Positions 9,384-33,169 of a stretch of 37,474 nt of DNA are shown here, one piece after another. The stretch's first letter is position 1, and each line of letters starts with the position of its first letter. Under the pieces are notes generated by a model. The model saw only the letters and a program-made list of their open reading frames with translations, was not told where the DNA came from and did no database searches. Location: NCBI GenBank assembly GCA_964485555.1, contig CAZAJN010000078.1, forward strand, positions 1-37,474. Direction: 5' to 3'. Source of the stretch: an uncultured Bdellovibrionales bacterium. Lineage in GTDB: Bacteria > Patescibacteriota > Minisyncoccia > Moranbacterales > GWC2-37-73. Position numbers and translations under genes: made by a program.

Positions 9384-10802
9384 CTAGAAGAAGTACCCTT
9401 TGCTTCCCGACAATGCCGCAGAGACAGCTTGCAGAACAATGAAGCCTGAAAGGCCGACAATTATTCCAATAAGAGCGTATTTGGCGTTGTTTTTGGCTGT
9501 TTTCATTTGGTCATCACTGCCGGCGGCAGTTGTGTATTGAACGCCTGAAAGCACAAATGCGCCTATTGCCAAAGTCGTGAAAAGACCCATCAGCCATGAA
9601 AAGATGTTGGACAAAATCAGATAGATCGGCGCATCTGAAAGACCGGTGTTGGTTGGAAAACAAACTCCTCCAATATCTTTGAAATTCGTGGCACATTTTG
9701 GTGTTGTTGCTCCGCTAAGACCTGCAACATTTCCAAGGCCTCTATTGTTAGATGTTCCATTATTAATGACAGTGAGCGGAGCTCCAGAACTCCTGTTTGT
9801 TTCACATATTTGTCCCATGATGCCATTAGCACACAAAGTGAAACCGCTTCCACTGTTCACACTTGAATTTACTGCTTGAAGATCAGCCGGTGGCAATTGC
9901 GCAATTGTTCCACTTGGCAATGTTGCTTGCCCCGTCGTAGTGTTGATGCTTGTTCCAGCTGGATATGTTTTGCCAGCTGAATCAACCAGTTGGGTATTAG
10001 TTTTTACAGCTTGAGTTGTTGTGTTTGTCGTTGACCCCCCTGAAGAAGGTGTTTCGCTTGTTGTAGAAGTACTTGGTGTTGGCCGAGCTTCGCAAGTAGA
10101 AACAAAAATACCAGTACATACTAAGTCATCATTTGGAAATAAGCGGGCGCAATCCTTGTCAGTCATGCATTCAGTATCCGCCCAGAAACCATCCACCATG
10201 CAAATATCAGCAATACATTTATAGCCTTTTCCGAATTTTTGAGTACAACTCTCATCAGTTATGCATTCCTTAACATTTTGATCCGAGGTGCAAACCCCCT
10301 CCGTGCTGTCATATGAATATCCACCATCACAAACACATTCTCCTCCTGATAAATGTTCATGCGACTGACAAGTTATACTGGGAGCGCTATCAGAGGTGCA
10401 AACACCTTCTGTGCTGTCATATGAAAAGCCTTTAATGCAAGCGCAATCGTTAATCGAGTTTTCAAAGTAAGTGTTTGGCATAGGACAATCAGTATTCACC
10501 GATTGAACAGAGTTGCACGTATTATTATACCAATATCCGCCATTCTTCTGACAACATATCTCGGTACTGTAATCTCCCGAGCAATTATTATTATAATTAT
10601 CATAAACAGGCACATTTGGATCACCTGGATAGCCAGCGCAATCCTCAGGCGTCCCCCCATAGTCGTTTATGCATTCACTATACGTCAAATCATCCGCCAT
10701 ACTGATACCAACAAAAGTAATGCCAAGAAAGAAAAACATGGCCACAACCAAATAAATTTTGTTTTTTATTTTCATTTTTTTATTGCATGAACCATTACTC
10801 AT
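9384..10802 (-). CDS. Secreted Cys-rich adhesin-like protein fused to a C-terminal VirB2/TrbC-like two-TM pilin module (P1)
   Basis: 472 aa. Signal/anchor KIYLVVAMFFFLGITFVGISMA; about 190 aa with over 30 Cys and repeated modules (C.KGFSYDSTEGVCTSD / CDGGYSYDSTEGVCTSD; EC[IM]TD..C). A Thr/Ser linker (TPSTSTTSETPSSGGSTTNTTT) follows. The C-terminal module is LMGLFTTLAIGAFVLSGVQYTTAAGSDDQMKTAKNNAKYALIGIIVGLSGFIVLQAV. Confidence 0.8.
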   Translation of the reverse strand: MSNGSCNKKMKIKNKIYLVVAMFFFLGITFVGISMADDLTYSECINDYGGTPEDCAGYPGDPNVPVYDNYNNNCSGDYSTEICCQKNGGYWYNNTCNSVQSVNTDCPMPNTYFENSINDCACIKGFSYDSTEGVCTSDSAPSITCQSHEHLSGGECVCDGGYSYDSTEGVCTSDQNVKECITDESCTQKFGKGYKCIADICMVDGFWADTECMTDKDCARLFPNDDLVCTGIFVSTCEARPTPSTSTTSETPSSGGSTTNTTTQAVKTNTQLVDSAGKTYPAGTSINTTTGQATLPSGTIAQLPPADLQAVNSSVNSGSGFTLCANGIMGQICETNRSSGAPLTVINNGTSNNRGLGNVAGLSGATTPKCATNFKDIGGVCFPTNTGLSDAPIYLILSNIFSWLMGLFTTLAIGAFVLSGVQYTTAAGSDDQMKTAKNNAKYALIGIIVGLSGFIVLQAVSAALSGSKGYFF

Positions 10803-10827: not shown

Positions 10828-11298
10828 TTAAAATGTTTTTGATCCACCACCAAGAAGAGCGGCCACTGCCTGCATGATGATGAACCCAGAAAGTCCAACA
10901 ATGATTCCGATGATTGAAGCAGTCATCCCCGCTTTTCCTTTTTTTGCATTGTCTTCATCTGCGCCAGCCAAAAGATAGAAAATTCCGGAAAGAACGAAAC
11001 CGACAATTCCTGCGATTGCAAAAACCGCCAACAGCCAAAACAAAAGATTTGAGGCAATTCCCAAAAGGCTTCCGCTTGGAAGACCGTATGGATTTGTCAG
11101 GGCCCAACCTCCGCCACTTCCTCCACCCCACACATTGGCAGCTCCGGAACCTCTCGATCCTACTCCAACATTGATGTTTCCAGTTGAACTGTTGTATCCA
11201 ACCCCCCATTCCTGAGCTAAGGCTAAAAATGGAGAAAGTGAAAAACCGATTATTGCCAAAGTCAGCGCGCAATAAAATTGATTGAGTTTCTTTTTCAT
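10828..11298 (-). CDS. VirB2/TrbC-like pilin paralog with Gly-rich ectodomain (P2)
   Basis: The ATG at 11298 gives signal peptide MKKKLNQFYCALTLAIIGFSLSPFLALA|QE; the ORF-track start at 11322 is TTG. A Gly/Ser/Asn-rich segment follows, then GLPSGSLLGIASNLLFWLLAVFAIAGIVGFVLSGIFYLLAGADEDNAKKGKAGMTASIIGIIVGLSGFIIMQAV...GGGSKTF. Confidence 0.8.
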   Translation of the reverse strand: MKKKLNQFYCALTLAIIGFSLSPFLALAQEWGVGYNSSTGNINVGVGSRGSGAANVWGGGSGGGWALTNPYGLPSGSLLGIASNLLFWLLAVFAIAGIVGFVLSGIFYLLAGADEDNAKKGKAGMTASIIGIIVGLSGFIIMQAVAALLGGGSKTF

Positions 11299-11379
11299 AT
11301 TTTTTATATTATAAAATGCCAAGATATTATTATATTAAAATTATAGCATAAAATTTTAATCATGCCTATATTTCTTGCA

Positions 11380-11458: not shown

Positions 11459-11812
11459 CTAGAAGCTCTTTGAATTTCCTCCAAGCAATCCTTTGACAGC
11501 TTGAATGATGATGACTCCCAAAAGGGCAACAATAATACCGATAATTGAGTTGATCATCGTTCTCTTTCCGCGATCGATCTGACCTTCGTCTCCTGCAGCT
11601 GTCAAATAGATGATACCTGCAATAACAAATCCGATAACACCAAGAATTCCAACAACGATCAACAGCCAATTCATTCCGCTAGTGATGATTCCCAAAAGAC
11701 TTCCTGCTGGCAAACCTGTTCCCGTAGGCTCTTGGAATTGAGCCATGGCCAAAGCCGGCATCAATGCAAGAGAAGAAATCATTCCGTAGGCAATTTTTTT
11801 CATTTTTTTCAT
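11459..11812 (-). CDS. Short VirB2/TrbC-like pilin (P3), candidate major subunit
   Basis: 117 aa. Signal peptide MKKMKKIAYGMISSLALMPALAMA|QF. The mature protein of about 93 aa has two TM helices around the loop YLTAAGDEGQIDRGKR and a C-terminal GGNSKSF. A strong SD (AGGAGGTG) lies 6 nt upstream of the ATG. Confidence 0.85.
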   Translation of the reverse strand: MKKMKKIAYGMISSLALMPALAMAQFQEPTGTGLPAGSLLGIITSGMNWLLIVVGILGVIGFVIAGIIYLTAAGDEGQIDRGKRTMINSIIGIIVALLGVIIIQAVKGLLGGNSKSF

Positions 11813-11878: not shown

Positions 11879-12160
11879 TCATTGAGCTTGAAAGAATTGT
11901 CCGATCAATCTCACCAGCACCATTCCGCCCAATGCCATCACTATGCCCAGAAAAGCATATTGGACATTTTTCTTCACCTTCCGCATGCGCTTTTCATCTC
12001 CAACAGAAGTCACATACATCATCGCCGAAACGACTAATGAAATTATAGCAATAATTCCAACAACTGACAACAAAAAATACAAAATATTCATCCCAATATT
12101 CGAAACCCTCGGCGCCTCGCTTATGACACCAGCCTGCGCCACGTCTATTAAACGAATCAT
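11879..12160 (-). CDS. VirB2/TrbC-like pilin module only, no obvious cleavable signal (P4)
   Basis: 93 aa: ILYFLLSVVGIIAIISLVVSAMMYVTSVGDEKRMRKVKKNVQYAFLGIVMALGGMVLV. It has the same TM-loop-TM pattern as P1-P3. Confidence 0.7.
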   Translation of the reverse strand: MIRLIDVAQAGVISEAPRVSNIGMNILYFLLSVVGIIAIISLVVSAMMYVTSVGDEKRMRKVKKNVQYAFLGIVMALGGMVLVRLIGQFFQAQ

Positions 12161-12559: not shown

Positions 12560-14245
12560 TTATTCATTGTTCAATCTCAGGTTCACCACATTCCCAGGAC
12601 TATTATCGTTGCCAGAAGAATTAGCTCCTATGTGAAAATTTTGAACTTGCCTGAAATTCGGACTGGCTCCTTTTTTCTGTGCTTCTTTTTCCCGATAAAT
12701 TTTCAAAAGCATCTCGTCGCTCAATGTGTCCAGATTTCCACCTGCTGGTGTTTCAATTTTTGTCACAGGCTCTGCTTGACTCATGACGCGAGGCTGAGCA
12801 GGAGCATGTGACGGCACATCAAAAGAATCGCCATGTTCAATTTTCAGAGCTGTTGAAATCTTTCTTGCGTCATATTCAGCTGTTCCCATTGGCGGTTTGG
12901 AGCCCGGAATGCTGAAAACTTCTTCTTTTGCTTGAATTGGTGGTTGCTGAAAATTTTGAGGTCGCAGTGGTTTTTCATAGCGTTCATGATTCAAGACATT
13001 TTCAACTCGCGGAACATCTTGTTTGGGAGTTGCGACAAAATTTGGCGAAAAAGAAATGTTTTTCAAAACAACCGGTGGTTTTTCTTTTTGAAATGCATCC
13101 GCGACAGGGAGTTTTTCCGGCGCTTTCACAACAGAATTTTCTCGGTCATAGAATTTCTCAACATCATCCATCTTATGAATGAATTCAGCGCTAACGAAAT
13201 TCTTGTCTGCACTTTCCTTGTAAGTCTCATGGCTAGGCATGGTGACTGGATTCTTGGCCACTTTGACAGGAATTTCATTTTGCTGCGGACCAGTCTGCTG
13301 AGGAGCTTGCATTCCGGACTGCGAGGCAGCTGGTCGACTCATAAAATCAGGTCTGAGATCAACAACTTTGCCTTGCTGTTGATTCACCTGTGCCCTGATT
13401 TCCACATTTCGCTGATCGGCAAAATTATCAGTCTGAACTTCCTGTTTGTCAGCAGACACAGGATCAGGAATCCATGTTTTTGCAGGAACGCTTGAAACAG
13501 TTTCGTTTCTCGCTTCATTTTCAAAAACAACAACTTCTCTGATTGGATCTATTGTCAAAAGTGTCTGTTCATCCAGAGACTTCAAAATAGCGCCAAGTTT
13601 TTGTCGCTCAGGAGCAGTCAGTTTTTTTCCATTTTCCCCATGAAACAAATAGTTTCCGCGATCAATCGGACTGTGTTTTCCAGCCCCCATTGAATCATGA
13701 AAATCCTTGATCCAATTCTTGATCGAAGGCCTTATCGAATCTGAAAAATTTTGCAGCTTTATTAATCTCTCAGTTATTATTTGTTCATTAATTTTTGGAT
13801 ATTGAGCTATTGCTTGCCTTAGATCCAATTGAAAATATTTCGCCTCATTATTAATTAATTCACTCTCTGGCTCTGAAATCAATACCATGTTGAATATTTC
13901 GCCACTAATAATACTTGAAATTTGTTGCGCAGAGATAATATCTAAAGATGAAATTTTTTGTGATAGTGCAGGAAGTAAATCACTTTTCGAAATATTTTTA
14001 AAATAAACTTCCCTAATCAAACGAGAAAGTTCTCCAATTTCTTCCGGCTCAAGGTGAAACTGAATCGAAATACTTTTAATTATTACAGGAAGCTTTTTTG
14101 ATATTAATATTTTTTTATCATTTTCATCAAGCATGTCAAATCTGTTCCACCTAGATAGAATTTCTTGAACTGAATCATCTTCTCCAATATTTGAGGAAAC
14201 AATCATTGGAAAAAAATAATTTTCAATAGGGTTGTTATCTTCCAT
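12560..14245 (-). CDS. Hypothetical protein, 561 aa (structured N-terminal ~240 aa, then a long Pro/Gln-rich disordered region)
   Basis: A long uninterrupted ORF tightly packed between neighbours (6-nt and 16-nt gaps). I see no TM segment or recognisable catalytic motif. Confidence 0.7.
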   Translation of the reverse strand: MEDNNPIENYFFPMIVSSNIGEDDSVQEILSRWNRFDMLDENDKKILISKKLPVIIKSISIQFHLEPEEIGELSRLIREVYFKNISKSDLLPALSQKISSLDIISAQQISSIISGEIFNMVLISEPESELINNEAKYFQLDLRQAIAQYPKINEQIITERLIKLQNFSDSIRPSIKNWIKDFHDSMGAGKHSPIDRGNYLFHGENGKKLTAPERQKLGAILKSLDEQTLLTIDPIREVVVFENEARNETVSSVPAKTWIPDPVSADKQEVQTDNFADQRNVEIRAQVNQQQGKVVDLRPDFMSRPAASQSGMQAPQQTGPQQNEIPVKVAKNPVTMPSHETYKESADKNFVSAEFIHKMDDVEKFYDRENSVVKAPEKLPVADAFQKEKPPVVLKNISFSPNFVATPKQDVPRVENVLNHERYEKPLRPQNFQQPPIQAKEEVFSIPGSKPPMGTAEYDARKISTALKIEHGDSFDVPSHAPAQPRVMSQAEPVTKIETPAGGNLDTLSDEMLLKIYREKEAQKKGASPNFRQVQNFHIGANSSGNDNSPGNVVNLRLNNE

Positions 14246-14261: not shown

Positions 14262-16400
14262 TCAAGGAATAAATGTTGGATTCGTTGCCCATGCTGCGCG
14301 AGCTTTATTTGTCATTTTTCCAAATGCCTCCTGATGAGCCGCTTTATTGTTACTATTTGCATAATGCCTGCTCACATAATTCTGGAGAGCAACATCCGTA
14401 GTAATATCTTCATGTAATTTCTTTTGTTTTCCAAAACTCTCAGGGTTTAATTTATTCAATTCTTCCTCATAAATTTGAGAATTAGTTCTTCCACCCTTAT
14501 TAAAAGTCATTTCATAATTTAATAATTTTTTCACATTTTCCTTTCTAACCTTGCCCTTTATTTTTCCACTAATGGCCTTTTCTTCATCACTTCCAACGGT
14601 CATGCCCGCAGTTGCAGCATGTAAAACTGAATTTAATTTTATATGATCAAGCTTATCGCTATCGGCGACATTTTCAGCTGCATCAATTGCTCGATGACGC
14701 AATTCAAAATTAGTTCCTGATTTCTCCAATACCTTTTGCAGAACTTCAGGATTACTCATGGCTGTCTTATCAGAAATGAGAGCCTTAACAGCTGCCATAC
14801 TCTCATGCGAATTTTTACTATCAAGATCTTTTGCAATAATGTCAGCAGTATAGTTTCTATCCTTGTATTCTTTCATTCTATCAGCAATTTTTGTATCTTC
14901 AATTTTTTTCTTAGCTCCTTCATAACCCTTACGCCCACCCGTAATCCCGCCAGACCATCTCGCCTCTCTTTGCTCCCTGGTTTCTGTTCCCATGAATGGA
15001 ATCTTCTTTCCAAAAAGCTTACCCTTCTTGTCAAAGTCCTCCTTAGCTTTCTTGGTTGCGCCATAAACTCCACTGTAATGTCCGGGTGCATTTGCAAGCC
15101 ACTTTCCACCCTTTTTCACACCATTCACAACAGTGTCCGCGCCTGCAATTCCAAAAGATTTTGCAACACCAATTCCCATCCACAGGATTATGATTGGTAT
15201 TGCATAAAAAGCCGCGCTCGCAATCCAGGTGACCTGCCCTGCTGGAGCATTTGTACTGGCATTTGAAATGAAGGGTTGGAAATTTTCCTTTCCCAAGGCT
15301 TCCGTAATGCGCAATGAAATTGCCATGATAAAGATCATGATGGGGGCAAAAAATGAATAATTGAAAAGTTTTTTCCACCAATCATCTGCGTAGCTGGACG
15401 TCGAAGGAAAAATATAGCCTACAAAACCCACTGGTGAGAACATTATAAGCATAGCTAGAGCAACCAAGCGCACCACAAAAAGACCTGCGACGACCATCAA
15501 TGTCATGCCCATAATGAAAACAACCACAATCATCGCAACCAAATAAGCAACACTGTAATCAGAATAATCCCCTGGAGCAAGCAATTCTCCCAATTTTGAT
15601 GAAGCATTAAGTCCTGCAAAAATAGCATTCCCGGTCACAACCCCACCAGATTGAAACAAATGGTTCACGAAATAATAAAAAGCAACATTAGAGATATCAA
15701 TAATGAATCTCGCAATCGGAAAACTAAAATTGACAAGGAGTGAATTGATCAAGATGTTGAGCCAAACTTTTTTTAAATTCCATTTGTCCACCTGAAAAAT
15801 CGTACAGAATGCCGCAAACAAAAGCACCAGGATAAATGTCATGTTCAAAAGATCACGAACCATGATCCAAACATCCTTGATTGCCTGTTTATTAAGCACG
15901 CCATTTGTCCCTGAAACACTTACAGGATCAATTGCCCAAGCAAACAAAGTTGAAGCAATGGCAAAAAGCCATCCGCAAAGATTAAAAATTCCCATCAATA
16001 ACTCCTTGAATGTGCACATCAATAGTGAATCCTTGCCACATGACTTTATATTTTCACCATTAAGTCCCTTAGTTCCAGCGCCCGGTAAACCAGCGGCAGC
16101 GCCAGCATTGCTGCCATCATTTTTGTAAGGGTTATTGCCAGTGACACCTGTCGCAACAGAATCAGCAAAAGCGCAACCACCCTTATATTCATCAAAAACC
16201 CTTTTTTGTCCTGAAGCATCAGAGCAGACACATGTTCCTGCAGATGCATTCCATGATGCACCTTCACCCTTACATGCAGATTGAGAAACTGCTTCCGCAG
16301 TATCCGTATTTGAAGAAAAAATTGCAAATGAAAACGCAAAAAACAACACCATAAAAAGCGCTTTTGTTTTTCCTCCCTGTGAAATATTTTTTCTTTTCAT
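14262..16400 (-). CDS. VirB6/TrbL-like polytopic membrane protein with Cys-rich N-terminal ectodomain and Lys-rich C-terminal tail
   Basis: The ATG at 16400 follows an AGGAAG SD and gives signal peptide MKRKNISQGGKTKALFMVLFFAFSFAIFSS. A small Cys domain (CKGEGASWNASAGTCVCSD...GGC) comes next, then 6-7 TM helices including LAMLIMFSPVGFVGYIFPSTSSYADDWWKKL (TrbL/VirB6-like). About 290 aa of charged C-terminus follows. The ORF-track extension to 16496 covers a GC-rich hairpin. Confidence 0.75.
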   Translation of the reverse strand: MKRKNISQGGKTKALFMVLFFAFSFAIFSSNTDTAEAVSQSACKGEGASWNASAGTCVCSDASGQKRVFDEYKGGCAFADSVATGVTGNNPYKNDGSNAGAAAGLPGAGTKGLNGENIKSCGKDSLLMCTFKELLMGIFNLCGWLFAIASTLFAWAIDPVSVSGTNGVLNKQAIKDVWIMVRDLLNMTFILVLLFAAFCTIFQVDKWNLKKVWLNILINSLLVNFSFPIARFIIDISNVAFYYFVNHLFQSGGVVTGNAIFAGLNASSKLGELLAPGDYSDYSVAYLVAMIVVVFIMGMTLMVVAGLFVVRLVALAMLIMFSPVGFVGYIFPSTSSYADDWWKKLFNYSFFAPIMIFIMAISLRITEALGKENFQPFISNASTNAPAGQVTWIASAAFYAIPIIILWMGIGVAKSFGIAGADTVVNGVKKGGKWLANAPGHYSGVYGATKKAKEDFDKKGKLFGKKIPFMGTETREQREARWSGGITGGRKGYEGAKKKIEDTKIADRMKEYKDRNYTADIIAKDLDSKNSHESMAAVKALISDKTAMSNPEVLQKVLEKSGTNFELRHRAIDAAENVADSDKLDHIKLNSVLHAATAGMTVGSDEEKAISGKIKGKVRKENVKKLLNYEMTFNKGGRTNSQIYEEELNKLNPESFGKQKKLHEDITTDVALQNYVSRHYANSNNKAAHQEAFGKMTNKARAAWATNPTFIP

Positions 16401-16428
16401 GAAATGACTTCCTAGAGCTATTTCGCCA

Positions 16429-16466
16429 GGCCCGCCCGCATCACTACGCGAAGCGTTGTGGGCAGG
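16429..16466. repeat. GC-rich hairpin island A
   Basis: GGCCCGCCCGCATCACTACGCGAAGCGTTGTGGGCAGG: outer imperfect stem CCCGCCCGCA/TGTGGGCAGG and inner ACGC-GAA-GCGT. A T-run follows on the plus strand. Its 5' half matches island B (GCCCGCCYCGCATCRAC). Confidence 0.6.
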
Positions 16467-16525
16467 ATTTTTTTTGTTTTTGTGCTTCAAATCCATCCGG
16501 ATTTTTCTCTTACATTTGCATTGAA

Positions 16526-16775: not shown

Positions 16776-17852
16776 TTAGTATATGAATCCCTTGATCGCT
16801 CTGCTCTTGGCAGAAAGTGTTCTGGTGCTTTTTTTGGCAAAACCAGCGTAGTTCATTTCACTGACAGTGATCGTGTCGCCGCTGACCTTTTCAACCAATG
16901 CAACGTGTCCGTAATATCTGTTTTCAGTCGTGACAACAATTGAGCCGACGCGCGGGGTTTTTCCAGTGGCATATCCGGCAGCTTTTGCATGATACAGCCA
17001 AGTTCCAGCGTTTCCTCCCCAAGGCACATAGCGCTTTTGCGCCACATACCAGGTACAATATCCATATGGGAAACGATGACCTGTTCCAGCTTTTCCTTTC
17101 AATGTGACGCCGCCTGAAACCTCAGGGGTTCCTCCCGCTGAATTTGCATATTGTCTTTTCTCAATGATGGATGTTCCCTCAGAAGCTGGCGCGGCTGGTT
17201 TTGGCGCTTCACCTTGACCATCAGGAATGACGATCTCTTCTCCAGCCTCAAGTTTTCCATTGGCCGGCAAATCATTAAATGCAATAATTTTGTCTTTTTC
17301 TGCCTTAAATTTGGACGCGATGGCATCAATGCTGTCACCATCTTTGACGACATATTTTATTCCAGACACAGGCAAGATGAAAAGCGTGTCACCTGGCATG
17401 ATGGAATCAACGTTGTCGATATCGTTAGCCCAAAGAATGGTGTTGATTGAAACTTTGTTTTTTGATGCGATCGAACCAAGCGTGTCACCTGACTGGACAA
17501 TGTACATCTTCACGCCGCCCTCTTCCTCAGGATCTTGCATAGGACTTGCTCCACCGGTTGCAGCCATGATTCCTTGAACATTGATGACGCTGCTCGCCTG
17601 GTCTTCTTCCTTGGCTCCTGGCTCAATGGCAGTGCTAGCTTTGGAAAGTGGCACCAAGGCCAAGTCATTTTTCTTATTTACCTGTCCATTTATTTTATTG
17701 CTGCTAAGAGAAGCTGCCTCAACCGGAGTGTCCCAATAGCCGAACAAAAAACTGCCTGCACCCTTTCCGGATGAAGCATTGGTGGCAGAAACAAGCACGG
17801 CGCTTGAAACCACCACGGCAAAAGCTGAATATCTGCGAACAAGATGAAGCAA
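16776..17852 (-). CDS. Secreted peptidoglycan hydrolase, 2x LysM + CHAP domain
   Basis: LysM repeats YIVQSGDTLGSIASKNKVSINTILWAN...GDTLFILP and YVVKDGDSIDAIASKFKAEKDKIIAFN...GEEIVIP. C-terminal CHAP-like FPYGYCTWYVAQKR...YGHVALVEKV. A TTG start at 17852 gives a signal peptide (LHLVRRYSAFAVVVSSAVLVSATNA). The frame stays open upstream to about 17994 without any ATG or GTG. Confidence 0.85.
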   Translation of the reverse strand: MLHLVRRYSAFAVVVSSAVLVSATNASSGKGAGSFLFGYWDTPVEAASLSSNKINGQVNKKNDLALVPLSKASTAIEPGAKEEDQASSVINVQGIMAATGGASPMQDPEEEGGVKMYIVQSGDTLGSIASKNKVSINTILWANDIDNVDSIMPGDTLFILPVSGIKYVVKDGDSIDAIASKFKAEKDKIIAFNDLPANGKLEAGEEIVIPDGQGEAPKPAAPASEGTSIIEKRQYANSAGGTPEVSGGVTLKGKAGTGHRFPYGYCTWYVAQKRYVPWGGNAGTWLYHAKAAGYATGKTPRVGSIVVTTENRYYGHVALVEKVSGDTITVSEMNYAGFAKKSTRTLSAKSRAIKGFIY

Positions 17853-19330: not shown

Positions 19331-19342
19331 AATTCGCATTAT

Positions 19343-21644: not shown

Positions 21645-22442
21645 CTAGAAGCTATCTGTAAGCTTTTTCCAATCCTCAACAGAAAGTTCCTGCGCGCGAG
21701 TGTTTTTGACAAATCCAATCGATTCTATTTTTTCCAAAATTTCTTTCTTCTCGAGATGCAAACCATTGGAAAGATTATTTTCCAAAGTTTTTCTTTTCGC
21801 TGAGAATCCCGCCCTCACAATCCTGAAGAATTTTTTGGTTTCCTCTTTGTTTTCCTTGCTTCCTGATTCATGATTCATGATTCTGATCACTGCGCTATCC
21901 ACCTTTGGAACTGGATCAAAAGCGCTGCGAGGAACAGTGAAGAGATATTTAGCATCTGAATAATATTGCACGCTAACCGCCAAAATGCTCATCGCTCCTG
22001 CCTTGGCTGTGATTCTTTCAGCCACCTCTTTTTGCACCATCAAAATAATTTCAGATGGCGGGAATTTTGTCTCCAAAAGAAGTCTGATGATCGGCGCAGT
22101 GATGTAGTAAGGAATGTTTGCAATCACCTTATATCCTTGTTGCAAATTATTCGATTCAATTAAAGCTGGAAGATTTATTTTCAAAATATCGTCATGAACT
22201 ATTTCTACGTGTTCATCGTATTGAAAATTCTCTTGTAGCACTGGAATCAAGCGGTCATCCAATTCAATTGCAATGACTTTTTTGCATCTCTCTGCTAAAA
22301 GCTCGGTGAGTGCGCCTTGCCCAGGTCCGATTTCAATCACGGTGTCCTCAGATGAGATGTTTCCGCTTTCAACAATGCGAGCAAGAACCTGCTCATCTTT
22401 CAAAAAATTCTGCCCCAGACTTTTTTTAGCTCTTATATTCAT
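21645..22442 (-). CDS. rsmA: 16S rRNA (adenine1518/1519-N6)-dimethyltransferase
   Basis: 265 aa. It has KSLGQNFL and the SAM motif VIEIGPGQGALT, with typical KsgA length and layout. Confidence 0.93.
   Translation of the reverse strand: MNIRAKKSLGQNFLKDEQVLARIVESGNISSEDTVIEIGPGQGALTELLAERCKKVIAIELDDRLIPVLQENFQYDEHVEIVHDDILKINLPALIESNNLQQGYKVIANIPYYITAPIIRLLLETKFPPSEIILMVQKEVAERITAKAGAMSILAVSVQYYSDAKYLFTVPRSAFDPVPKVDSAVIRIMNHESGSKENKEETKKFFRIVRAGFSAKRKTLENNLSNGLHLEKKEILEKIESIGFVKNTRAQELSVEDWKKLTDSF
21862..21887. repeat. W1 word repeat embedded in-frame inside rsmA
   Basis: CCTGATTCATGATTCATGATTCTGAT encodes ...IRIMNHESGS... on the minus strand. The same words form intergenic spacers elsewhere. 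Confidence 0.7.
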
Positions 22443-22480: not shown

Positions 22481-22514
22481 CCTAAGAAGCTAATAAGCTA
22501 ATGCCTAAAAAGCT
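22481..22514. repeat. Exact 34-nt repeat, copy B (W2 family)
   Basis: Identical to 4540-4573. It overlaps the stop codon of the G5-RlpA gene by 2 nt. Confidence 0.9.
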
Positions 22515-25222: not shown

Positions 25223-25375
25223 ATATAAATAATTTTCAATTTTCAATTCACAATTTTCAAACAATGAATAAATTTTTCAATGTTCTTAAAATTTAGAATT
25301 TCATCATTTGAAATTGCTTAGGATTTAGAAATTGTCCCCAGGATAGATTGGAGTGGGAAGTTTAAAATTTTATGC

Positions 25376-26032
25376 CTATTCTTGTTCATGTTTTCTTTCT
25401 GAAAGTGTAGTAAAATAAACAACCAAGGCAGTCGCTGTCGCCTCTGGAATGAAATTGATTCCTGGCATAAATCCTGCCAATGTTCCAGCTAGGATTATAC
25501 CGCCTTTTTTAACGAGACCATTGGCAACCTTTTTTTTGCCGCCTCCTCCAACTAGCAGCATCATCATAAAAATGAAAATTGAGCACATGATCGTGATCAC
25601 CGTTCCGACTCCAGGCAAAGAGCCTATAAAAACCAAGTCTGAAAGATCTTTGAGCATGGAAGCTCCAATCGCTGCGACAAAAGGCATGTCACCAATCGGA
25701 TTTATTTGCTTAAGAAGTGACATCGCGCCCATTGGTGTTGCCATCTTAGCGGCATCAGTTGCCAAATTCTCAGTTTTTTTAGCTTCACTGTTTCCCGATC
25801 CTGCTCTTGCCTTACCAAGTCTCTCCGCATGCTTATCATCTTCGCCATCTTCAACAAGACGAGGATTATTCCTTAACTCGTCTTCACTTTCATCGTGAAC
25901 TCTATGTATTCCCTGATTATAATTATCAGCTAGCCCGTTTCTGGGCACATTGAAATTTTCGACTCGTGAAGACCCAAGTCTGGCATTGTTTAGCTCATTC
26001 TGTTTTTCGTAATCAATCGCAGCATTCGACAT
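25376..26032 (-). CDS. Hypothetical membrane protein (disordered acidic N-half, 2-3 TM helices in the C-half)
   Basis: 218 aa. TM candidates are GTVITIMCSIFIFMMMLLVGG, GGIILAGTLAGFMPGINFI and ATATALVVYFTTL. It lies directly downstream of the VirB4-like gene. Confidence 0.7.
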   Translation of the reverse strand: MSNAAIDYEKQNELNNARLGSSRVENFNVPRNGLADNYNQGIHRVHDESEDELRNNPRLVEDGEDDKHAERLGKARAGSGNSEAKKTENLATDAAKMATPMGAMSLLKQINPIGDMPFVAAIGASMLKDLSDLVFIGSLPGVGTVITIMCSIFIFMMMLLVGGGGKKKVANGLVKKGGIILAGTLAGFMPGINFIPEATATALVVYFTTLSERKHEQE

Positions 26033-26077
26033 AACAATGCATTTGGAATTTGTAATTTATCATTTGAAATTTCCAGC

Positions 26078-27907
26078 CTACATTCCTTCTTCCTCATCAA
26101 AATCCTTCTTGGCTTGTTCAATTTCCATCAGCTGACGAGGATCGGATGTGATAATCTGGTCTTCAGCGTAAGACGCAATAACTTTGATTGCCACATGCTT
26201 TGCACCTGCAAACAAAACGCCTTCTCCAACATTACTTTCTAAAAGAAGGAATTTTTCTTGCTCTGTCAAATAGAAAGTGTCTGAAATCGTATCGATGGCT
26301 GCCGGCGATTGGCGCAAGAGCAATTGAAGTGAAGAGTTGGTCACAATAGGTTTTCCATAGCGGGAACTCATGAAGTCTGCGATGTCCTGAGTAATTGTTG
26401 TCAGCCCAGTGTAATATTTTCGGCAACGCTTGGCGATTCCAAACAGAAATGATGCTGCATCCTCATTCTGCATCATGACCCAAGCTTCATCCACCACAAC
26501 TATTCTCTTTTTCAGTGTTGAACGCATCTCATTCCAAATGAACTGCAAAATAGTATACATCGCAATTGGGCGAAGTTGTTCTTCAAGATCGCGGATGTTG
26601 AAAACCACCAATTGATTGTTGATCTGCACGTTGGTTGGATGATTCAAAACGCCGGCAAAAATTCCCTCCGTATATTTCTCAAGGCGACGTGCAATGGATT
26701 CTCCACCTTCTGAATTCCTGACAACCGAATAAAGATCTGACATGGTTGGGAAAGAATTGGAGTTGAAGGATTTGAAATTGCTTTGCGCGGTGATGTCGCG
26801 CATGGCATATGTCTCGCGGATTGCCAGATCCAAAATGGAATCTTCTTCCGGCGTCACTGCTCCAAGCATGATATGCAAAAGACCGATAAGACTCGCAATA
26901 TTTGACCTGAGAACATCTTCAGGGTCCTCATCCTCACTCACCTGCGGAAGATCGAAAGGATTGAGATGGAAATTTGAGTTGAGAGAGAGCTTAATGAAAG
27001 TTCCGCCTACCGTTTCACAAAGATATTTGTATTCATTTTCAGGATCAATCACTATCACATTAGTTCCCACCATCAACGAGCGGAATATTTCCAACTTCAC
27101 AGTATAACTTTTTCCACCTCCAGATTTTGAGAACACGACCATGTTTGCGTTCTCCATCTTGAAGCGATCGAACAAGATCAAACTGTTATTATGCCTGTTT
27201 ATGCCATACAGAATTCCTTCATTGGATGAAAGATCAGCTGAAACGAATGGGAAAGTTGTTGAAAGAGGCGCGGTGTTGAGGTTGTTCGCCACATCAAGTT
27301 CATCATTAGCCAATGGCAAAGTCGAAGAAAAACCTTGTTCCGTTTTCAAAACTGCTGGTTTTATGTACACCAGTTGAGCTTCAAGAATCGATTCTATTTC
27401 CTGATTGGCCTTATCAAGCTCCTCCATTGTTTTCCCATAAATCGTCATATACAAACCGAAGCGAAAAAACTTTTCCGTTCCTTGTTGCAATTTGTCTCGC
27501 AAATCTTCAATGTCCTGCAAAGCTGTTTCCAAGATCGGATCGCGGATTTTTCCAGACTGTTCCTCCATGTGAATCTGGGATTGAACCTGGGTAGAACTTT
27601 TCCTGAGCGTTTTCAGAATTTCAGCCGTATTGATCGGATGAATGAACATCGAGGTGTCCATTGAAAAATCGATGTTGATAATGGGAGAAAACCAATTAGT
27701 GTGCAAATAGCGAGGATATGCCACGACGAAAAGTGTCCGCGCATACGTTTCACCAACCTGCAAATAATTTGAACTTATCTTCATGGCGGCTGGCGCGATC
27801 AAATCTTTGATGGTTGCCACACCTTGCTGATAAAGCGCCTCACTTTGAAGTATTGCGTTTGTTGACACAGCCGGTTTTTGATTTTTATTTTTATCCAATC
27901 CAAACAT
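26078..27907 (-). CDS. virB4: VirB4/TrsE/PrgJ-like T4SS ATPase
   Basis: 609 aa. Walker A VVFSKSGGGKSYTVK (around aa 262) and Walker B KRIVVVDEAWVMM, then the downstream motif GLTTITQDIADF. The N-terminal region (GETYARTLFVVAYPRYLHTNWFSPII) is like Gram-positive VirB4 proteins. Confidence 0.85.
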   Translation of the reverse strand: MFGLDKNKNQKPAVSTNAILQSEALYQQGVATIKDLIAPAAMKISSNYLQVGETYARTLFVVAYPRYLHTNWFSPIINIDFSMDTSMFIHPINTAEILKTLRKSSTQVQSQIHMEEQSGKIRDPILETALQDIEDLRDKLQQGTEKFFRFGLYMTIYGKTMEELDKANQEIESILEAQLVYIKPAVLKTEQGFSSTLPLANDELDVANNLNTAPLSTTFPFVSADLSSNEGILYGINRHNNSLILFDRFKMENANMVVFSKSGGGKSYTVKLEIFRSLMVGTNVIVIDPENEYKYLCETVGGTFIKLSLNSNFHLNPFDLPQVSEDEDPEDVLRSNIASLIGLLHIMLGAVTPEEDSILDLAIRETYAMRDITAQSNFKSFNSNSFPTMSDLYSVVRNSEGGESIARRLEKYTEGIFAGVLNHPTNVQINNQLVVFNIRDLEEQLRPIAMYTILQFIWNEMRSTLKKRIVVVDEAWVMMQNEDAASFLFGIAKRCRKYYTGLTTITQDIADFMSSRYGKPIVTNSSLQLLLRQSPAAIDTISDTFYLTEQEKFLLLESNVGEGVLFAGAKHVAIKVIASYAEDQIITSDPRQLMEIEQAKKDFDEEEGM

Positions 27908-27937
27908 ATGTGTATTTTTAATTTATACTGCTCGTGA

Positions 27938-28627
27938 TTATCTCAACTCAATCTTGTCTATGTCTTTGATGATACTGTTGTTGTGCGTTGAAGGATTGTA
28001 TGAATTATAAAGCAGTTCTATCAATTCTTCTGTCTTGAGCGGTGTGACTTTCACACCTGTTCCTGAAAGACCTGCACTGATATGATCGACTCTTTGCCAA
28101 AGCTGATTTTTGTAAGTATCAAACAACTCTCTGCGCCTTGAAATTGCCATCTGTGAATTTGTCGATCCGAAAAGGCGGTCAATAATTCCACTCTTAGTGC
28201 TTTCGATCGGATAAAAAGGCACAACCACATAGAAAAATTTGGACATGATGTTTGAAACATCGGCCAAATTTTTGATGAAATTGGAATACTCTGCCAATTG
28301 CATGCTCAAAAGTTCATTGGTGAGTTGCGTTTCTTTTTTCTTAAGATAATCGATATATGGATTTATGTTCAATTTGCGGGAACTAACAACTATTTGCATC
28401 GGAAAATCCAGGGAGTTTAGAAAATTCTGATACTGGCTAATGATGGAATCTTGTTCTTCAGTCGCTTTGAGATCAAAGTTTATCGAAGAAACCAAAAGCA
28501 CCGCTCTGAGCGATCCGTTCTTGAGCACGATGACGCCGTCGCGCACTTCTTCCACGTCGACATATTTCTGACTGCTAGAGCCTCCTCCACCGCCATTGGT
28601 CAAATTATTTGAATGCAATGATTCCAT
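27938..28627 (-). CDS. Hypothetical soluble protein with VirB4 N-terminal-domain-like pattern
   Basis: About 230 aa: VDVEEVRDGVIVLKNGSLRAVLLVSSINFDLKATEEQDSIISQYQNFLNSLDFPMQIVVSSRKLNINPYIDYL. The start is uncertain (28627 or 28663, the latter inside W4 words). Confidence 0.65.
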   Translation of the reverse strand: MESLHSNNLTNGGGGGSSSQKYVDVEEVRDGVIVLKNGSLRAVLLVSSINFDLKATEEQDSIISQYQNFLNSLDFPMQIVVSSRKLNINPYIDYLKKKETQLTNELLSMQLAEYSNFIKNLADVSNIMSKFFYVVVPFYPIESTKSGIIDRLFGSTNSQMAISRRRELFDTYKNQLWQRVDHISAGLSGTGVKVTPLKTEELIELLYNSYNPSTHNNSIIKDIDKIELR

Positions 28628-28644
28628 AAAATTGCTCGTTAAGA

Positions 28645-28742
28645 CATATAAACATTCAAGCATTCAAACATGCGAATTTCTGTTTGGGTGTTTGGATGTT
28701 TAAGTGTGTAGACTGATTGAATGTTTAGATGTTTTGATGTCT
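28645..28742. repeat. Word-repeat spacer, family W4, inverted arms
   Basis: Sequence CATATAAACATTCAAGCATTCAAACATGCG...GTTTGGATGTTTAAGTG...TTGAATGTTTAGATGTTTTGATG. Confidence 0.7.
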
Positions 28743-28757
28743 AATTGATTGCTTACA

Positions 28758-29210
28758 CTACGCCTTTTTGATCGGTTGATTTTTCATAATGTCATCAAGA
28801 TCATGGCTATAATTGTTTCCTTCACTATCCAAAAGTTGCGCGAGATTTCTTAGTGAATCCTCAGTAAGGTGTTTGTCCGGAGAAAATTTTTGTTCAACTT
28901 TTGCTTTTTGCGGAACATTGATCACATTTTGCGGTGTTCTTTTCCAGATGTAAACTTTGGGCTTGAAAAAGTACATGATTCCAAAAATTACAAAGCTTCC
29001 CATTGGTTGACCATACGGCTTGAAAAAAGCCAGAGATCCGAAAATGATAGCTAGCGGAAAACCTATGACCAAAAAACCCGCGAACGGAACAACATTCCAA
29101 AGAATGAGCAACATCACTCCGAGCGCGATAAGCCAACCCAACTGCTTGATAGTCAGCGGTCCGGCCACTTTATCTTCTACGTCTATATATTGTGGAACGT
29201 TTATTAACAT
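28758..29210 (-). CDS. PrgI/VirB3-like small T4SS membrane protein
   Basis: 150 aa. The N-terminus VPQYIDVEDKVAGPLTIKQLGWLIALGVMLLILWNVVPF is followed by a second TM helix. It sits just upstream of the VirB4 genes, as prgI does relative to prgJ. Confidence 0.7.
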   Translation of the reverse strand: MLINVPQYIDVEDKVAGPLTIKQLGWLIALGVMLLILWNVVPFAGFLVIGFPLAIIFGSLAFFKPYGQPMGSFVIFGIMYFFKPKVYIWKRTPQNVINVPQKAKVEQKFSPDKHLTEDSLRNLAQLLDSEGNNYSHDLDDIMKNQPIKKA

Positions 29211-29237
29211 TTTTATTTTTATTTTCTTTAACTTACA

Positions 29238-30143
29238 TTAGCCAACTATGAAAAACTTTGCGACCTGAGTCACCAAAACCATCGATGCCATAGCTATTAC
29301 AACTCCCAGCAAGGAATATTTGAAAATATTTTTTCCAGTATCAATCCTGTCCTCATCCCCTGCAGATGTGAGATACATGGATGCGCCAATGACCATCATG
29401 ACAAGTGAAAGAATTCCCAAGATTCCAAGCAAGAAATTCAAAACCCGGGTGGCAATCTGAGAAAGACTAAGCGCTGCAGCCAAACGCGTGTCAGTTGTTC
29501 CCCAACCCAATATGGTTGATATTTCTTTCAGAAAAGATGGGGCTGCCAATCCGATGGCCAATCCGACAAGCGCAGCTGTGATCATGTTCTTGGCTGTTTC
29601 GATCTGTTTTCCACCTCCTGAGATGACATACATCACCGCACCGATGACGATCATCAAAAGCGAAAGAGTGACGATAATTCCTTGCAATGCTCCCATGATT
29701 TGACTCAAGAATTGATCAACTGTTTGAAATTTGAGTGGATTGGTAAATGCTGTCCCTCCACCAGAAGCCGGCTGAACTGTTCCCGGATTGGCAGTGGCTG
29801 GACTTGGTATTGGACCAGAATTGGAATCCACACAAGTGCCAGCTGCATTACATACCCCATAATTTCCCGCTGCAGAGCAAGGTTGCATGATTGATGAACC
29901 ATCCGCATTGCAAGTAACTGAGGAAATGGCACAGCATTGAACACTATTACCAGTGCCAGGACAAAGATTTGCCACGCACCCCGATTCACCGGAAACTTTG
30001 TTTTTATCAACGCAAGCTGAACCAGGATTTTTGGCTGAGCAAGTATCAGCTAGAACTTTCTGAACACCAAAAGTTAAAAAAAATCCAGATATCAAGAGGA
30101 ACAAAAACATACTCAACCGTAATTTCATTATTGTCTTAGTCAT
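29238..30143 (-). CDS. Secreted Cys-rich protein carrying two tandem VirB2/TrbC-like pilin modules (P5)
   Basis: 301 aa. Signal peptide MKLRLSMFLFLLISGFFLTFGVQKVLA|D, then a Cys-rich segment of about 75 aa. Module 1 is IIVTLSLLMIVIGAVMYVISGGGKQIETAKNMITAALVGLAIGLAAPSF. Module 2 is LLGILGILSLVMMVIGASMYLTSAGDEDRIDTGKNIFKYSLLGVVIAMASMVLV. Confidence 0.8.
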   Translation of the reverse strand: MTKTIMKLRLSMFLFLLISGFFLTFGVQKVLADTCSAKNPGSACVDKNKVSGESGCVANLCPGTGNSVQCCAISSVTCNADGSSIMQPCSAAGNYGVCNAAGTCVDSNSGPIPSPATANPGTVQPASGGGTAFTNPLKFQTVDQFLSQIMGALQGIIVTLSLLMIVIGAVMYVISGGGKQIETAKNMITAALVGLAIGLAAPSFLKEISTILGWGTTDTRLAAALSLSQIATRVLNFLLGILGILSLVMMVIGASMYLTSAGDEDRIDTGKNIFKYSLLGVVIAMASMVLVTQVAKFFIVG

Positions 30144-30164
30144 ATTTTTTATTATATTTAATTT

Positions 30165-30812
30165 CTATCGATTAGGATTCGCACTGCAATCAAACTGTCC
30201 CCAACTCGTGATGTTCATGCCAAATGTAGGATTTCCTTGAGCGTCTGTTTTCGATCCCAATGATTGTATGACAGTGTTGACAATCAGCCATCCGGCAAAA
30301 ATAATAACAAAACCTATAGCTGCATTTTTCATAATATCCTTGGCTCTTCCTGTTGTCTTTGGGTCTCCAGCTGAAACTACATACACAACTCCAGCAATAG
30401 TAAAAGCAAGCAAGCCAACACCTATGGAAATTCTCATGATGTATTGGATCACATTATTGAGCCCCGCTATAAAGTCACAAAGCGTGCACATAGATTGACC
30501 AGGTCTTCCACATTTCACCAACTGACTCTCTTCGGTTGTAGTTCCCGGAATCTTATAGTCTGTTGCCTGTCCGGCACTTCCAGGGCCAGAAGCGGGAGTG
30601 GTGACAACGCCTGATGTGACACAATTCCCTTTGCCATCGCATTTTCCATATTCAGCACTTTTGCCATCACCAACCGAGCATGCTGTCTTGTCAGGTTTAT
30701 TCAGACAAACTGCATCTGCAGCCATGGCTGGCAAATTATTGACAAAAAGTCCACCCAACAGGATGACGCTATATGCGATACTTTTTATAGTTTTCATTTT
30801 CATGATCATCAA
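30165..30812 (-). CDS. Secreted Cys-rich protein with a VirB2/TrbC-like pilin module and C-terminal extension (P6)
   Basis: 215 aa. Signal peptide ...SVILLGGLFVNNLPAMA|AD and a Cys-rich ectodomain. The module is ISIGVGLLAFTIAGVVYVVSAGDPKTTGRAKDIMKNAAIGFVIIFAGWLIV, followed by a 35-aa tail containing Cys. Confidence 0.8.
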   Translation of the reverse strand: MMIMKMKTIKSIAYSVILLGGLFVNNLPAMAADAVCLNKPDKTACSVGDGKSAEYGKCDGKGNCVTSGVVTTPASGPGSAGQATDYKIPGTTTEESQLVKCGRPGQSMCTLCDFIAGLNNVIQYIMRISIGVGLLAFTIAGVVYVVSAGDPKTTGRAKDIMKNAAIGFVIIFAGWLIVNTVIQSLGSKTDAQGNPTFGMNITSWGQFDCSANPNR

Positions 30813-32953: not shown

Positions 32954-32995
32954 GTATTTGGTATTTGGTATTTGGTATTTGGTATTTGGTATTTG
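32954..32995. repeat. Perfect heptanucleotide tandem repeat, (GTATTTG)x6
   Basis: Six exact copies from 32954 to 32995 plus a partial seventh. It lies 10 nt upstream of the candidate -35, in the divergent region between the MTase operon and tRNA-Ser. Confidence 0.95.
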
Positions 32996-33071
32996 GTTTC
33001 TAGTTACTGATTACGAGTTACGAGTCGCATGTTTGTCTGATTGTATGTTTTCATGATTAAATGATTATCAT

Positions 33072-33160
33072 GGAGGGTTGGCAGAGCCCGGTCGAATGCG
33101 CCGCACTCGAAATGCGGTAAGGGAGAAATCTCTTCGCAGGTTCAAATCCTGTGCCCTCCG
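33072..33160 (+). tRNA. tRNA-Ser (anticodon CGA), class II with long variable arm
   Basis: Acceptor GGAGGGT/GCCCTCC. Anticodon arm CCGCA-CTCGAAA-TGCGG. The variable arm contains GGGAGAAATCTCTTC. T-arm GCAGG-TTCAAAT-CCTGT; discriminator G. Confidence 0.9.
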
Positions 33161-33169
33161 CCTTCGACC

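Follow-up and report, generated by a model that had tools for sequence, protein, structure and literature searches.

The DNA considered here, a contig of 37,474 nucleotides (nt) referred to throughout as the window, carries at positions 25376-30812 six co-directional open reading frames (ORFs) on the minus strand, separated by gaps of 21, 27, 94, 30, and 45 nt. A second group of genes occupies 9.4-17.9 kb, and the two loci, about 8 kb apart, encode components of a type IV secretion system (T4SS). Very probably, the six ORFs amount to one half, with ATPase and pilins, of a chromosomal Patescibacteria T4SS, i.e., a vertically inherited derivative of the conjugation machine of monoderm bacteria (MPF-FATA type). 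A preceding reading of the letters alone, hereafter the sequence-only reading, had delimited the six ORFs and their short gaps, and both the exact coordinates and the spacing (21-94 nt) were recovered.

The ORF scan of the window used a minimum size of 110 amino acids (aa), and all such ORFs were run against Pfam, the gathering cut-off of which is abbreviated GA below. Relatives of VirB4 were sought by scanning one genome per species, which returned 283 loci; comparisons use the best 80 of these, where VirB4 is 70-94% identical to that of the window. Synteny in related loci was mapped by tblastn, and those sharing the divided layout of the window (L001-L026 and L043, 27 loci) are called split-layout relatives.

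Genes of the two loci

The six ORFs of the first locus are as follows:

30165..30812, minus strand: pil215, a secreted VirB2-type pilin of 215 aa (Pfam T4SS_pilin PF18895, 1.4e-10, residues 118-181)
29238..30143, minus strand: pil301, a double pilin of 301 aa (Pfam T4SS_pilin, 5.5e-13, two stretches)
28758..29210, minus strand: a PrgI/VirB3-like protein of 150 aa (Pfam PrgI PF12666, 2.1e-7, 31.8 bits against a GA of 27)
27938..28663, minus strand: a TrsD-like soluble protein of 241 aa (NCBIfam TrsD NF041427, 1e-8)
26078..27907, minus strand: a VirB4 ATPase of MPF-FATA type, 609 aa (NCBIfam conju_CD1110, 1.5e-112, 377 bits against a cut-off of 325)
25376..26032, minus strand: m218, an uncharacterised membrane protein of 218 aa following virB4, without Pfam or NCBIfam family

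Profile searches for VirB4 and PrgI homology had been set beforehand as the test of the initial assignment, and both homologies were supported. In the 609-aa ATPase, the Walker A motif GGGKSY was located at residues 263-268 (nt 27121-27104) and the Walker B motif VVVDEAW at residues 470-476 (nt 26500-26480). Besides conju_CD1110, this protein matches the Pfam families P-loop_TraG (6e-29), AAA_10 (2e-11), and CagE_TrbE_VirB (2.7e-4, 21.4 bits for a GA of 21), as well as, in the PDB, the VirB4 C-terminal domain 4ag5 (1.7e-49) and TrwK (5e-6). The 150-aa protein, initially described as PrgI-like with two transmembrane (TM) segments, exceeds the PrgI cut-off, exhibits two hydrophobic helices (residues 19-58), and also has a Pfam TcpE match (5e-4); its gene is found immediately upstream of TrsD-VirB4 in 74 of the 80 related loci. 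Sequence searches of the PDB with PrgI and with TrsD returned no match.

The VirB4 of this system is encoded as a conserved split gene, i.e., TrsD plus the 609-aa ATPase. The 241-aa ORF aligns to positions 8-109 of conju_CD1110 (752 positions) and 105-233 of VirB4_plasma (894 positions), the model of VirB4 from Mycoplasma integrative and conjugative elements (ICEs), while the ATPase covers positions 179-734 of the former model and 292-893 of the latter. Because they cover successive segments of the same two profiles, the two products jointly correspond to one full-length MPF-FATA VirB4, the 241-aa TrsD-like protein being, as judged from these alignments, the apparent equivalent of the detached extreme N-terminal segment. 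The label “VirB4-N-like” given to this ORF from sequence thus agrees with the profile matches to VirB4 N-terminal ends, but was incomplete, because what this ORF encodes is TrsD, a conserved part of the divided VirB4. In 77 of the 80 related species, TrsD has an ORF to itself; in the window, its gene ends 30 nt upstream of virB4, and its true start is probably Met13, at 28627. The kinship is visible through profiles only, a BLASTP comparison of TrsD with the VirB4 N-terminus being not significant (E 0.07).

The first two ORFs had been read as secreted Cys-rich pilins, the second of them double, and their T4SS_pilin matches and signal-peptide-like N-termini bear this out. In pil215, the signal peptide leads into an ectodomain about 70 aa long and rich in Cys (8 Cys); a single TM-loop-TM pilin module comes next, then a short tail that also contains Cys. 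A match of pil215 to the NCBIfam Mycoplasma-ICE pilin-like family NF045849 (2.1e-5) remains below the cut-off. In pil301, the signal peptide and a Cys-rich ectodomain (10 Cys) precede two tandem pilin modules on one polypeptide, an architecture present in 24 of the 27 split-layout relatives; for the other three, no module was captured or the contig ends.

The second locus comprises the following genes:

16776..17852, minus strand: LysM-CHAP peptidoglycan hydrolase (Pfam LysM x2, 5e-21, and CHAP, 6e-19)
14262..16496, minus strand: extended VirB6-like polytopic protein of 744 aa (Pfam TrbL/VirB6 PF04610, 7.5e-5, 23 bits)
12560..14245, minus strand: u561, a cytoplasmic T4SS-linked orphan protein of 561 aa
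12164-12553: 23S-rRNA-IVP/bAvd-like four-helix-bundle gene, at the very breakpoint that separates u561 from the pilin array
11879..12160, minus strand: pil93, a small pilin of 93 aa (Pfam T4SS_pilin, 5.1e-7, 30.1 bits against a GA of 26.6)
11459..11812, minus strand: pil117, a short canonical pilin of 117 aa (Pfam T4SS_pilin, 2.3e-8)
10828..11322, minus strand: pil164, a pilin of 164 aa with a Gly-rich N-terminal extension (T4SS_pilin, 1.7e-4, 22 bits, below GA)
9384..10802, minus strand: pil472, a pilin of 472 aa fused to a Cys-rich ectodomain (T4SS_pilin, 8.8e-11, residues 392-452)

The LysM-CHAP hydrolase is a candidate VirB1 analogue, and its gene stands directly upstream of the VirB6-like gene in split and single-locus layouts alike. 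The VirB6-like protein begins with a Cys-rich ectodomain, continues with about six membrane helices, and ends in a hydrophilic domain some 300 aa long; its orthologue in the nearest relative (L081) likewise has a weak TrbL match, and in single-locus relatives its gene adjoins u561-PrgI-TrsD-VirB4. The IVP gene is also encountered between u561 and PrgI in two single-locus relatives (L042, about position 4050, and L047, about 8038). The resemblance of its product to bAvd raised the idea of a diversity-generating retroelement acting on the pilins, which was rejected as the window holds neither a reverse transcriptase nor a template/variable repeat pair; the pilin-pilin repeats found in the window are homologous modules only.

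Altogether, the window encodes six pilin genes with seven modules, five of the six genes scoring above the Pfam GA, and the modules are 19-54% identical to that of pil117. The sixth, pil164, aligns with the other pilin modules, and its orthologue in L081 has a T4SS_pilin match. The sequence-only reading made no mention of pil93, which sits in a 351-nt “gap” (11813-12163), has no signal peptide, and has in common with a 91-aa orthologue in L081 the N-terminal motif A(Q/H)AGVI(S/T)(E/D)AP. At the other extreme, pil472 (453 aa in L081) possesses an internally repeated ectodomain of about 350 aa with 27 Cys, an internal 42-nt repeat lying at 10281-10430, and is a candidate adhesin or tip pilin.

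As the shortest pilin with a signal peptide, pil117 exhibits one module, no Cys, and no ectodomain. Among the 31 genes of the window, it is the only one preceded by a canonical Shine-Dalgarno sequence, AAAGGAGGTG (11813-11830), which is conserved in L081 as GGGAGGTG (10110-10129 of that locus), the other gene starts having AT-rich leaders without Shine-Dalgarno. On account of this lone conserved signal, its short length, and the lack of an ectodomain, pil117 is a candidate for the major, or bulk, pilin, while the Cys-rich fusions pil215, pil301, and pil472 would be minor pilins, displayed at the surface or at the tip. In the solved VirB2 and TraA pili, both termini of the subunit point outward, which makes it sterically plausible for a subunit to carry an N-terminal extension or to join two hairpins covalently in tandem.

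Two components of the system are orphans. In m218, which matches no Pfam or NCBIfam family, the N-terminal stretch of about 95 aa is disordered and variable, and the C-terminal part exhibits three to four predicted membrane helices, in keeping with its first description as a membrane protein, as well as the invariant residues K128, D129, and P196. By tblastn, most of the 80 loci have a homologue immediately after virB4, a homologous ORF being found in 62 of the 80 by blastp, and a profile search returned 506 clusters at 50% identity; the longer members of the family have no Pfam domain, hence no informative fusion. The AlphaFold2 (AF2) model is all-helical, with a predicted local distance difference test score (pLDDT) of 68.5, and Foldseek against the PDB gave helical-bundle noise only (best E 0.56). 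The possibility of m218 being a divergent pilin was rejected (hhalign against the window pilin modules, probability 1%).

The other orphan, u561, has no Pfam or NCBIfam match either, no membrane helix, and no Cys; it consists of a folded N-terminal part of about 250 aa and a Q/P-rich tail, about 300 aa long and disordered, in which short motifs are conserved, namely SFS and, at the C-terminus, NVVNLR. Its AF2 model reaches a pLDDT of 88.8 for residues 1-260 and Foldseek found no match in the PDB (best E 2.2), so that the N-terminal 250 or so residues apparently adopt, on the strength of this model, a new fold linked to a T4SS. All 68 homologues with a source name come from Moranbacteria/Parcubacteria, and in single-locus relatives u561 always stands between VirB6 and PrgI.

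In 13 single-locus loci, a Cys-containing protein of 907-1010 aa is encoded about 1 kb downstream of virB4-m218 (e.g., L059, 13020-15812; L079, 12882-15914). It has an N-terminal hydrophobic leader, a C-terminal membrane anchor, no Pfam domain, and no homologue in the window, and may represent an additional adhesin or other surface component belonging to the system. These ORFs contain a Walker A-like motif and were considered as coupling proteins, a candidacy rejected given their secreted look and the chance nature of the motif.

Layout, inheritance, and genomic setting

In the split-layout relatives, the genes follow in the order solute-binding protein (SBP), pilin, double pilin, PrgI, TrsD, VirB4, m218, ComM, G5-DPBB, KsgA, UvrD, Xer (on the opposite strand), LysM-CHAP, and VirB6, and the second locus then continues in L081 with u561, the 91-, 117-, 153-, and 453-aa pilins, and NusA. 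In more distant Moranbacteria (L027-L080, L043 excepted), there is one contiguous cluster instead, namely (UvrD, Xer,) LysM-CHAP-VirB6-u561-PrgI-TrsD-VirB4-m218. Because the more distant relatives carry this single cluster, the division into two loci is a rearrangement within one sub-lineage rather than a design feature, and both loci of the window are one system cut in two. The recurrence of the synteny in relatives further indicates that u561 and m218 are conserved and tightly linked parts of it.

The degree of conservation differs widely along the system, as seen from mean identities to the window proteins among the split-layout relatives. The ATPase domain of VirB4 reaches 90%, its N-terminal domain 79%, and the TrsD core 77%, to be compared with 84% for IF-2, 79% for ComM, 71% for UvrD, and 57% for the SBP. 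By contrast, the membrane modules of the pilins stand at 51-59% and their ectodomains at 16-22%, with 28-43% gaps; for pil215 (22 orthologues), the module is 51% identical and the ectodomain 16% with 43% gaps, and for pil301 the modules are conserved at 56-59% and the ectodomain at 22%. Across species, the identity of VirB4 correlates with that of ComM, IF-2, and UvrD (Spearman 0.92-0.93). The Xer-type recombinase beside the second locus is itself syntenic and 55-80% identical in relatives. Taken together, the synteny, the divergence, the GC content, and the pattern of conservation describe an old, vertically inherited, and strongly constrained machine with a fast-evolving external face, and not a mobile element. 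The contrast between motor and ectodomains is what a host-contact organelle would be expected to show.

The setting agrees with this. The GC content is uniform along the window (0.35-0.46), its GC skew is accounted for by the coding strand, and no duplicated tRNA ends of at least 14 nt, as att-like borders would leave, occur elsewhere in the window. Outside the T4SS, the genes are housekeeping genes by Pfam, i.e., those for RNase Y, iPGM, ClpP, trigger factor, NusA, an Xer-type recombinase, UvrD/PcrA, KsgA, a G5-DPBB wall protein, ComM/YifB, the SBP, a methyltransferase, IF-2, RbfA, and NrnA. The sequence-only reading had placed the operon in a housekeeping neighbourhood rather than in an island, and uniform GC, conserved synteny, the absence of copied tRNA ends, and the parallel divergence of VirB4 with ComM, IF-2, and UvrD all concur. 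Further features of the window are:

58-130 and 33072-33162: two tRNA genes
18326-19279: tyrosine (Xer-type) recombinase gene, adjoining the second T4SS locus

Most of the best 80 of the 283 VirB4 relatives bear titles naming Candidatus Moranbacteria/Moraniibacteriota, Parcubacteria, Paceibacteria, Minisyncoccota, or Patescibacteria, and the source genome of the window is that of a member of the Moranbacteria (Parcubacteria). Many metagenome-assembled genomes with near-identical Moranbacteria-type loci (L004, L020, L021, L024, and others) are titled “uncultured Bdellovibrionales bacterium,” evidently a mislabel in public records.

Promoter and terminator scans of the window gave counts near the shuffled expectation, and operon boundaries can thus not be set from them. 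The strand switch near 33 kb was considered as a replication origin and rejected, with 9 DnaA boxes found for 9.6 expected.

Nearly every intergenic spacer of the window contains 3-8 tandem copies of a 7-8-nt unit (2849-2883, 4453-4495, 6573-6597, 7626-7654, 8889-9007, 9164-9203, 10799-10821, 11417-11448, 12154-12182, 12548-12573, 16693-16749, 18269-18336, 19338-19376, 21559-21590, 21860-21887, 25231-25260, 26041-26072, 28681-28740, 32954-32997, 33002-33070, 36289-36329, and 37334-37363). Recurring units are ATGTTTAA, CATGATT, TAGCTT(A/T), AAATTGA, TTTTGTA, and GTATTTG (x6.3, perfect); the ATGTTTAA type is found in the PrgI/TrsD and pil117/pil164 spacers as well as upstream of the MT183-SBP-pilin run. 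Intergenic 7-8-nt repeats exist in relative L001 too, with different units. Such repeats may be regulatory or structural DNA. In addition, a perfect 34-nt direct repeat, CCTAAGAAGCTAATAAGCTAATGCCTAAAAAGCT, is present at 4540-4573 (iPGM/ClpP spacer) and 22481-22514 (KsgA/G5-DPBB spacer), 18 kb apart. Within the 495-nt NusA/pil472 spacer, at 8964-9204, 42-nt inverted-repeat arms of the TTTTGTA type, 88% complementary to each other, enclose 157 nt of GC-rich sequence that contains two hairpins with CAAG loops and has no Rfam match; a small RNA or a miniature element is conceivable here. Similar arms are found in the RbfA/NrnA spacer (36227-36331).

Possible functions of the system

Most likely, by analogy with other T4SSs, these genes specify a non-conjugative host-contacting pilus or conduit. 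The pilins would be inserted into the membrane by Sec, as inferred from studied T4SSs, and a VirB4/TrsD hexamer docked on PrgI and VirB6 would extract them and polymerise the pilus, which would pass through a hole opened in the peptidoglycan by the CHAP hydrolase. In such a pilus, pil117 would be the bulk subunit, and the pilins with Cys-rich ectodomains would display variable host-binding domains on the surface or at the tip. The view already taken in the sequence-only reading, i.e., a non-conjugative T4SS derivative building a filament or contact device, coincides with a conclusion already published for Patescibacteria (PMC10633639, PMC12102498, PMC12857230).

Among the window ORFs of at least 110 aa, Pfam detected no homologue of VirD4, of a relaxase, of VirB11, or of VirB8-10, and no homologue of the VirB7-VirB10 envelope core was found in the window. 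Within 10 kb on either side of virB4 in the 80 species, no coupling protein appeared among the Walker A-containing ORFs of at least 380 aa, the additional ones being PhoH-like, PilB-type T2SSE, or the secreted protein with a chance motif.

These results bear on what the machine may do. That the genes are the mating-pair-formation module of an ordinary ICE or of a plasmid remnant, with relaxase, coupling protein, and origin of transfer (oriT) outside the contig, is highly improbable. The best matches of VirB4 are indeed conjugative families, namely CD1110 of CTn2 and the VirB4 of Mycoplasma ICEs, a tyrosine recombinase gene adjoins the second locus, the window holds two tRNA genes, and relaxases are recorded in 103 of 3,035 Patescibacteria genomes (PMC12102498). 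Yet the same housekeeping neighbours accompany the system across dozens of species, the recombinase itself included, VirB4 diverges in step with IF-2, ComM, and UvrD, GC is uniform, tRNA ends are not duplicated in the window, no coupling protein accompanies virB4 in the 80 species, and the ATPase is as well conserved as a translation factor. Export of effectors or toxins into the host cell, whereby the host would be manipulated or lysed, is unlikely. It has been speculated upon in the Saccharibacteria literature (PMC10633639, PMC11665869) and would be compatible with a pilus or conduit and a VirB6 channel, but export by T4SSs normally needs a VirD4-type coupling protein, of which none is linked here or in the 80 relatives; the distant homologue of the type IV coupling protein (T4CP) in Southlakia epibionticum is not essential (PMC12102498), and the neighbouring genes are housekeeping genes with no candidate effector gene linked.

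The lack of a nearby coupling protein is equally in line with a pilus serving adhesion or motility only, where a VirB2-type filament would tether the cell to its host without any transport, and so are the six pilin genes, several with large and variable Cys-rich ectodomains. A precedent exists in the T-pilus of Agrobacterium, the biogenesis of which requires VirB4 and not VirD4. This explanation is nonetheless rather doubtful, since an extended VirB6-like channel protein is retained and linked, the housekeeping-level conservation of the ATPase and the essentiality of the system in Saccharibacteria suggest more than one redundant adhesin, and Patescibacteria already have type IV pili for adhesion and motility (PMC12857230). 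A contact pilus also serving the import of host macromolecules is tentatively favoured, because building a pilus and uptake (ComB, Ced) are what T4SSs are known to achieve without a coupling protein; pure adhesion and effector export appear less likely. A more specific version can be formulated, i.e., a T4CP-independent importer whose VirB2-type pilus, made of pil117 in bulk and of Cys-rich host-specific tips, would penetrate the host envelope while the split VirB4 would pull in macromolecules, e.g., nucleic acids, with m218 and u561 as new core subunits replacing VirB8 and the coupling protein. In this detailed form, the proposal is distinctly unlikely.

Several points weigh against the reading of the region as half of a Patescibacteria T4SS that makes a host-contacting pilus. 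The system is known here from its genes, and pilus formation, direction of transport, and substrate in Moranbacteria are all inferred. The TrbL score of the VirB6-like protein, 23 bits, lies below the Pfam GA of 25.9; the Shine-Dalgarno sequence speaks only indirectly for pil117 being the major pilin; structure searches of the PDB with m218 and u561 gave no clue to their roles; and a VirB8-like protein (NTF2 fold) was not found, the window containing no match to the VirB8, PrgL, or TcpC families. The absence of coupling protein and relaxase refers to the 37-kb contig and, for the coupling protein, also to the 10 kb on either side of virB4 in relatives. The claim of the sequence-only reading that VirD4, relaxase, VirB11, and VirB8-10 are lacking accordingly stands for these 37 kb, but VirD4-like homologues are reported elsewhere in most Patescibacteria genomes (2,918 of 3,035; PMC12102498). 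Finally, the ComEC-dependent competence of S. epibionticum is dispensable, which is neutral as to import mediated by the T4SS (PMC12857230).

Few machines are known to be indispensable to Patescibacteria, very abundant and mostly uncultured bacteria, in their life as epibionts; the T4SS is one of them. Of this machine, the window provides a textbook Moranbacteria example and leaves the general picture unchanged. The details it adds are minor, namely (i) the ancestral single-cluster layout, (ii) the m218 and u561 families, (iii) the conserved double pilin, (iv) the 93-aa pilin, (v) a candidate major pilin marked by a Shine-Dalgarno sequence, and (vi) the contrast between the motor and the hypervariable ectodomains.

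Comparison with known systems

In S. epibionticum, a cluster essential for epibiotic growth encodes a VirB6-like protein, an NTF2-like protein, a large protein, PrgI, a hypothetical protein (TrsD), VirB4, lysozyme-like proteins, and six PF18895 pilins, and the pilins as well as the lack of a coupling protein and a relaxase were noted by its discoverers (Wang et al., 2023, PMC10633639). A survey of Patescibacteria reported VirB4 in 2,417 of 3,035 genomes, as a clade nested in MPF-FATA, with TrsD as its most abundant partner (Quinonero-Coronel et al., 2025, PMC12102498). In the same survey, PrgI/VirB3 and VirB6 occur widely, as do arrays of 2-11 VirB2 genes; relaxases and VirB8 homologues are rare, T4CP homologues are rarely close to virB4, and the systems are chromosomal, near ksgA or dnaA. 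A 2025 review regards Patescibacteria T4SSs as unique among monoderm T4SSs in that they are essential and potentially pilus-making (PMC12857230). A 2026 preprint on a cultured parasite from the Minisyncoccota describes tubular structures, possibly T4SS pili, connecting it with its host, whose RNA is proposed to be taken up (bioRxiv 10.64898/2026.06.21.733656). The literature search returned no description of this T4SS specifically in Moranbacteria. The preprint entitled “Novel pilus system in CPR” (candidate phyla radiation) was considered as a match and rejected, as it concerns Ig-fold donor-strand pili unrelated to the window pilins.

Like the Patescibacteria T4SS (S. epibionticum SEML1_0006-0019; PMC12102498), the window system comprises VirB4, TrsD, PrgI/VirB3, a VirB6-like protein, a cell-wall hydrolase, and a divergent array of PF18895 pilins, has no linked relaxase or coupling protein, and is chromosomal, beside housekeeping genes such as ksgA. 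The core order in S. epibionticum, VirB6-X-PrgI-TrsD-VirB4, is that of the ancestral Moranbacteria layout, and the slot between VirB6 and PrgI is held by u561 in Moranbacteria and by the essential 998-aa SEML1_0011 in S. epibionticum; more generally, the positions of SEML1_0011 and SEML1_0007 are taken in Moranbacteria by the unrelated-looking u561 and m218. Differences concern the distribution of the window cluster over two loci about 8 kb apart, the LysM-CHAP hydrolase in place of lysozyme-like proteins, and the NTF2/VirB8-like gene, which is present in the S. epibionticum cluster and was not found in the window. The window also has one two-module pilin and several pilins with Cys-rich ectodomains, and the passages of PMC12102498 consulted mention neither kind.

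Against this background, the interpretation put forward in the sequence-only reading is supported, while the novelty was overstated, the window holding a typical member of an already described system. The minimal composition, which it had singled out as unusual, is the published norm for Patescibacteria, and the same applies to the multiplicity of pilins, for which arrays of 2-11 genes are the rule (PMC12102498). The two-locus split, likewise held to be unusual, is present but derived, in view of the single cluster of distant Moranbacteria.

With the conjugative MPF-FATA systems, the window shares a VirB4 above the curated CD1110 cut-off, separate TrsD and VirB4 genes as in pGO1 (TrsD/TrsE), a PrgI-type VirB3, a CHAP-domain hydrolase, and the absence of an outer-membrane core. 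Those systems, however, belong to mobile elements with relaxase, T4CP, and oriT and have adhesins instead of VirB2 pilins, whereas the system of the window is vertically inherited, has six pilin genes, and is linked to neither a relaxase nor a T4CP. As regards Mycoplasma ICEs, the window VirB4 matches NF045975 (Mbov_0397 VirB4) at 7.4e-87, with 292 bits against 590 and hence below the equivalog cut-off, and three of the four window pilins scanned match the Mbov_0395 pilin-like family (2.8e-6 to 1.7e-4), with 21-27 bits against a cut-off of 40. These matches to VirB4 and to pilin-like proteins point to the existence of a monoderm or wall-less MPF-FATA relative with pilin-like proteins, although in Mycoplasma these genes belong to an ICE that transmits itself and encodes a DDE transposase and TraG.

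Like the window system, ComB of Helicobacter pylori and the archaeal Ced system are driven by VirB4, chromosomal, and non-conjugative, and function without coupling protein or relaxase. Weak NCBIfam matches to CedB and CedD were obtained (5e-14 and 3.9e-5), far below the cut-off (52 against 700 bits), and Ced uses CedA/A1/A2. ComB possesses VirB7-10 homologues for the diderm envelope and no VirB2 pilus, as opposed to the six pilins and the lack of VirB7-10 in the window. A functional analogy between the T4SS of the window and T4CP-independent import of the ComB type is nonetheless possible.

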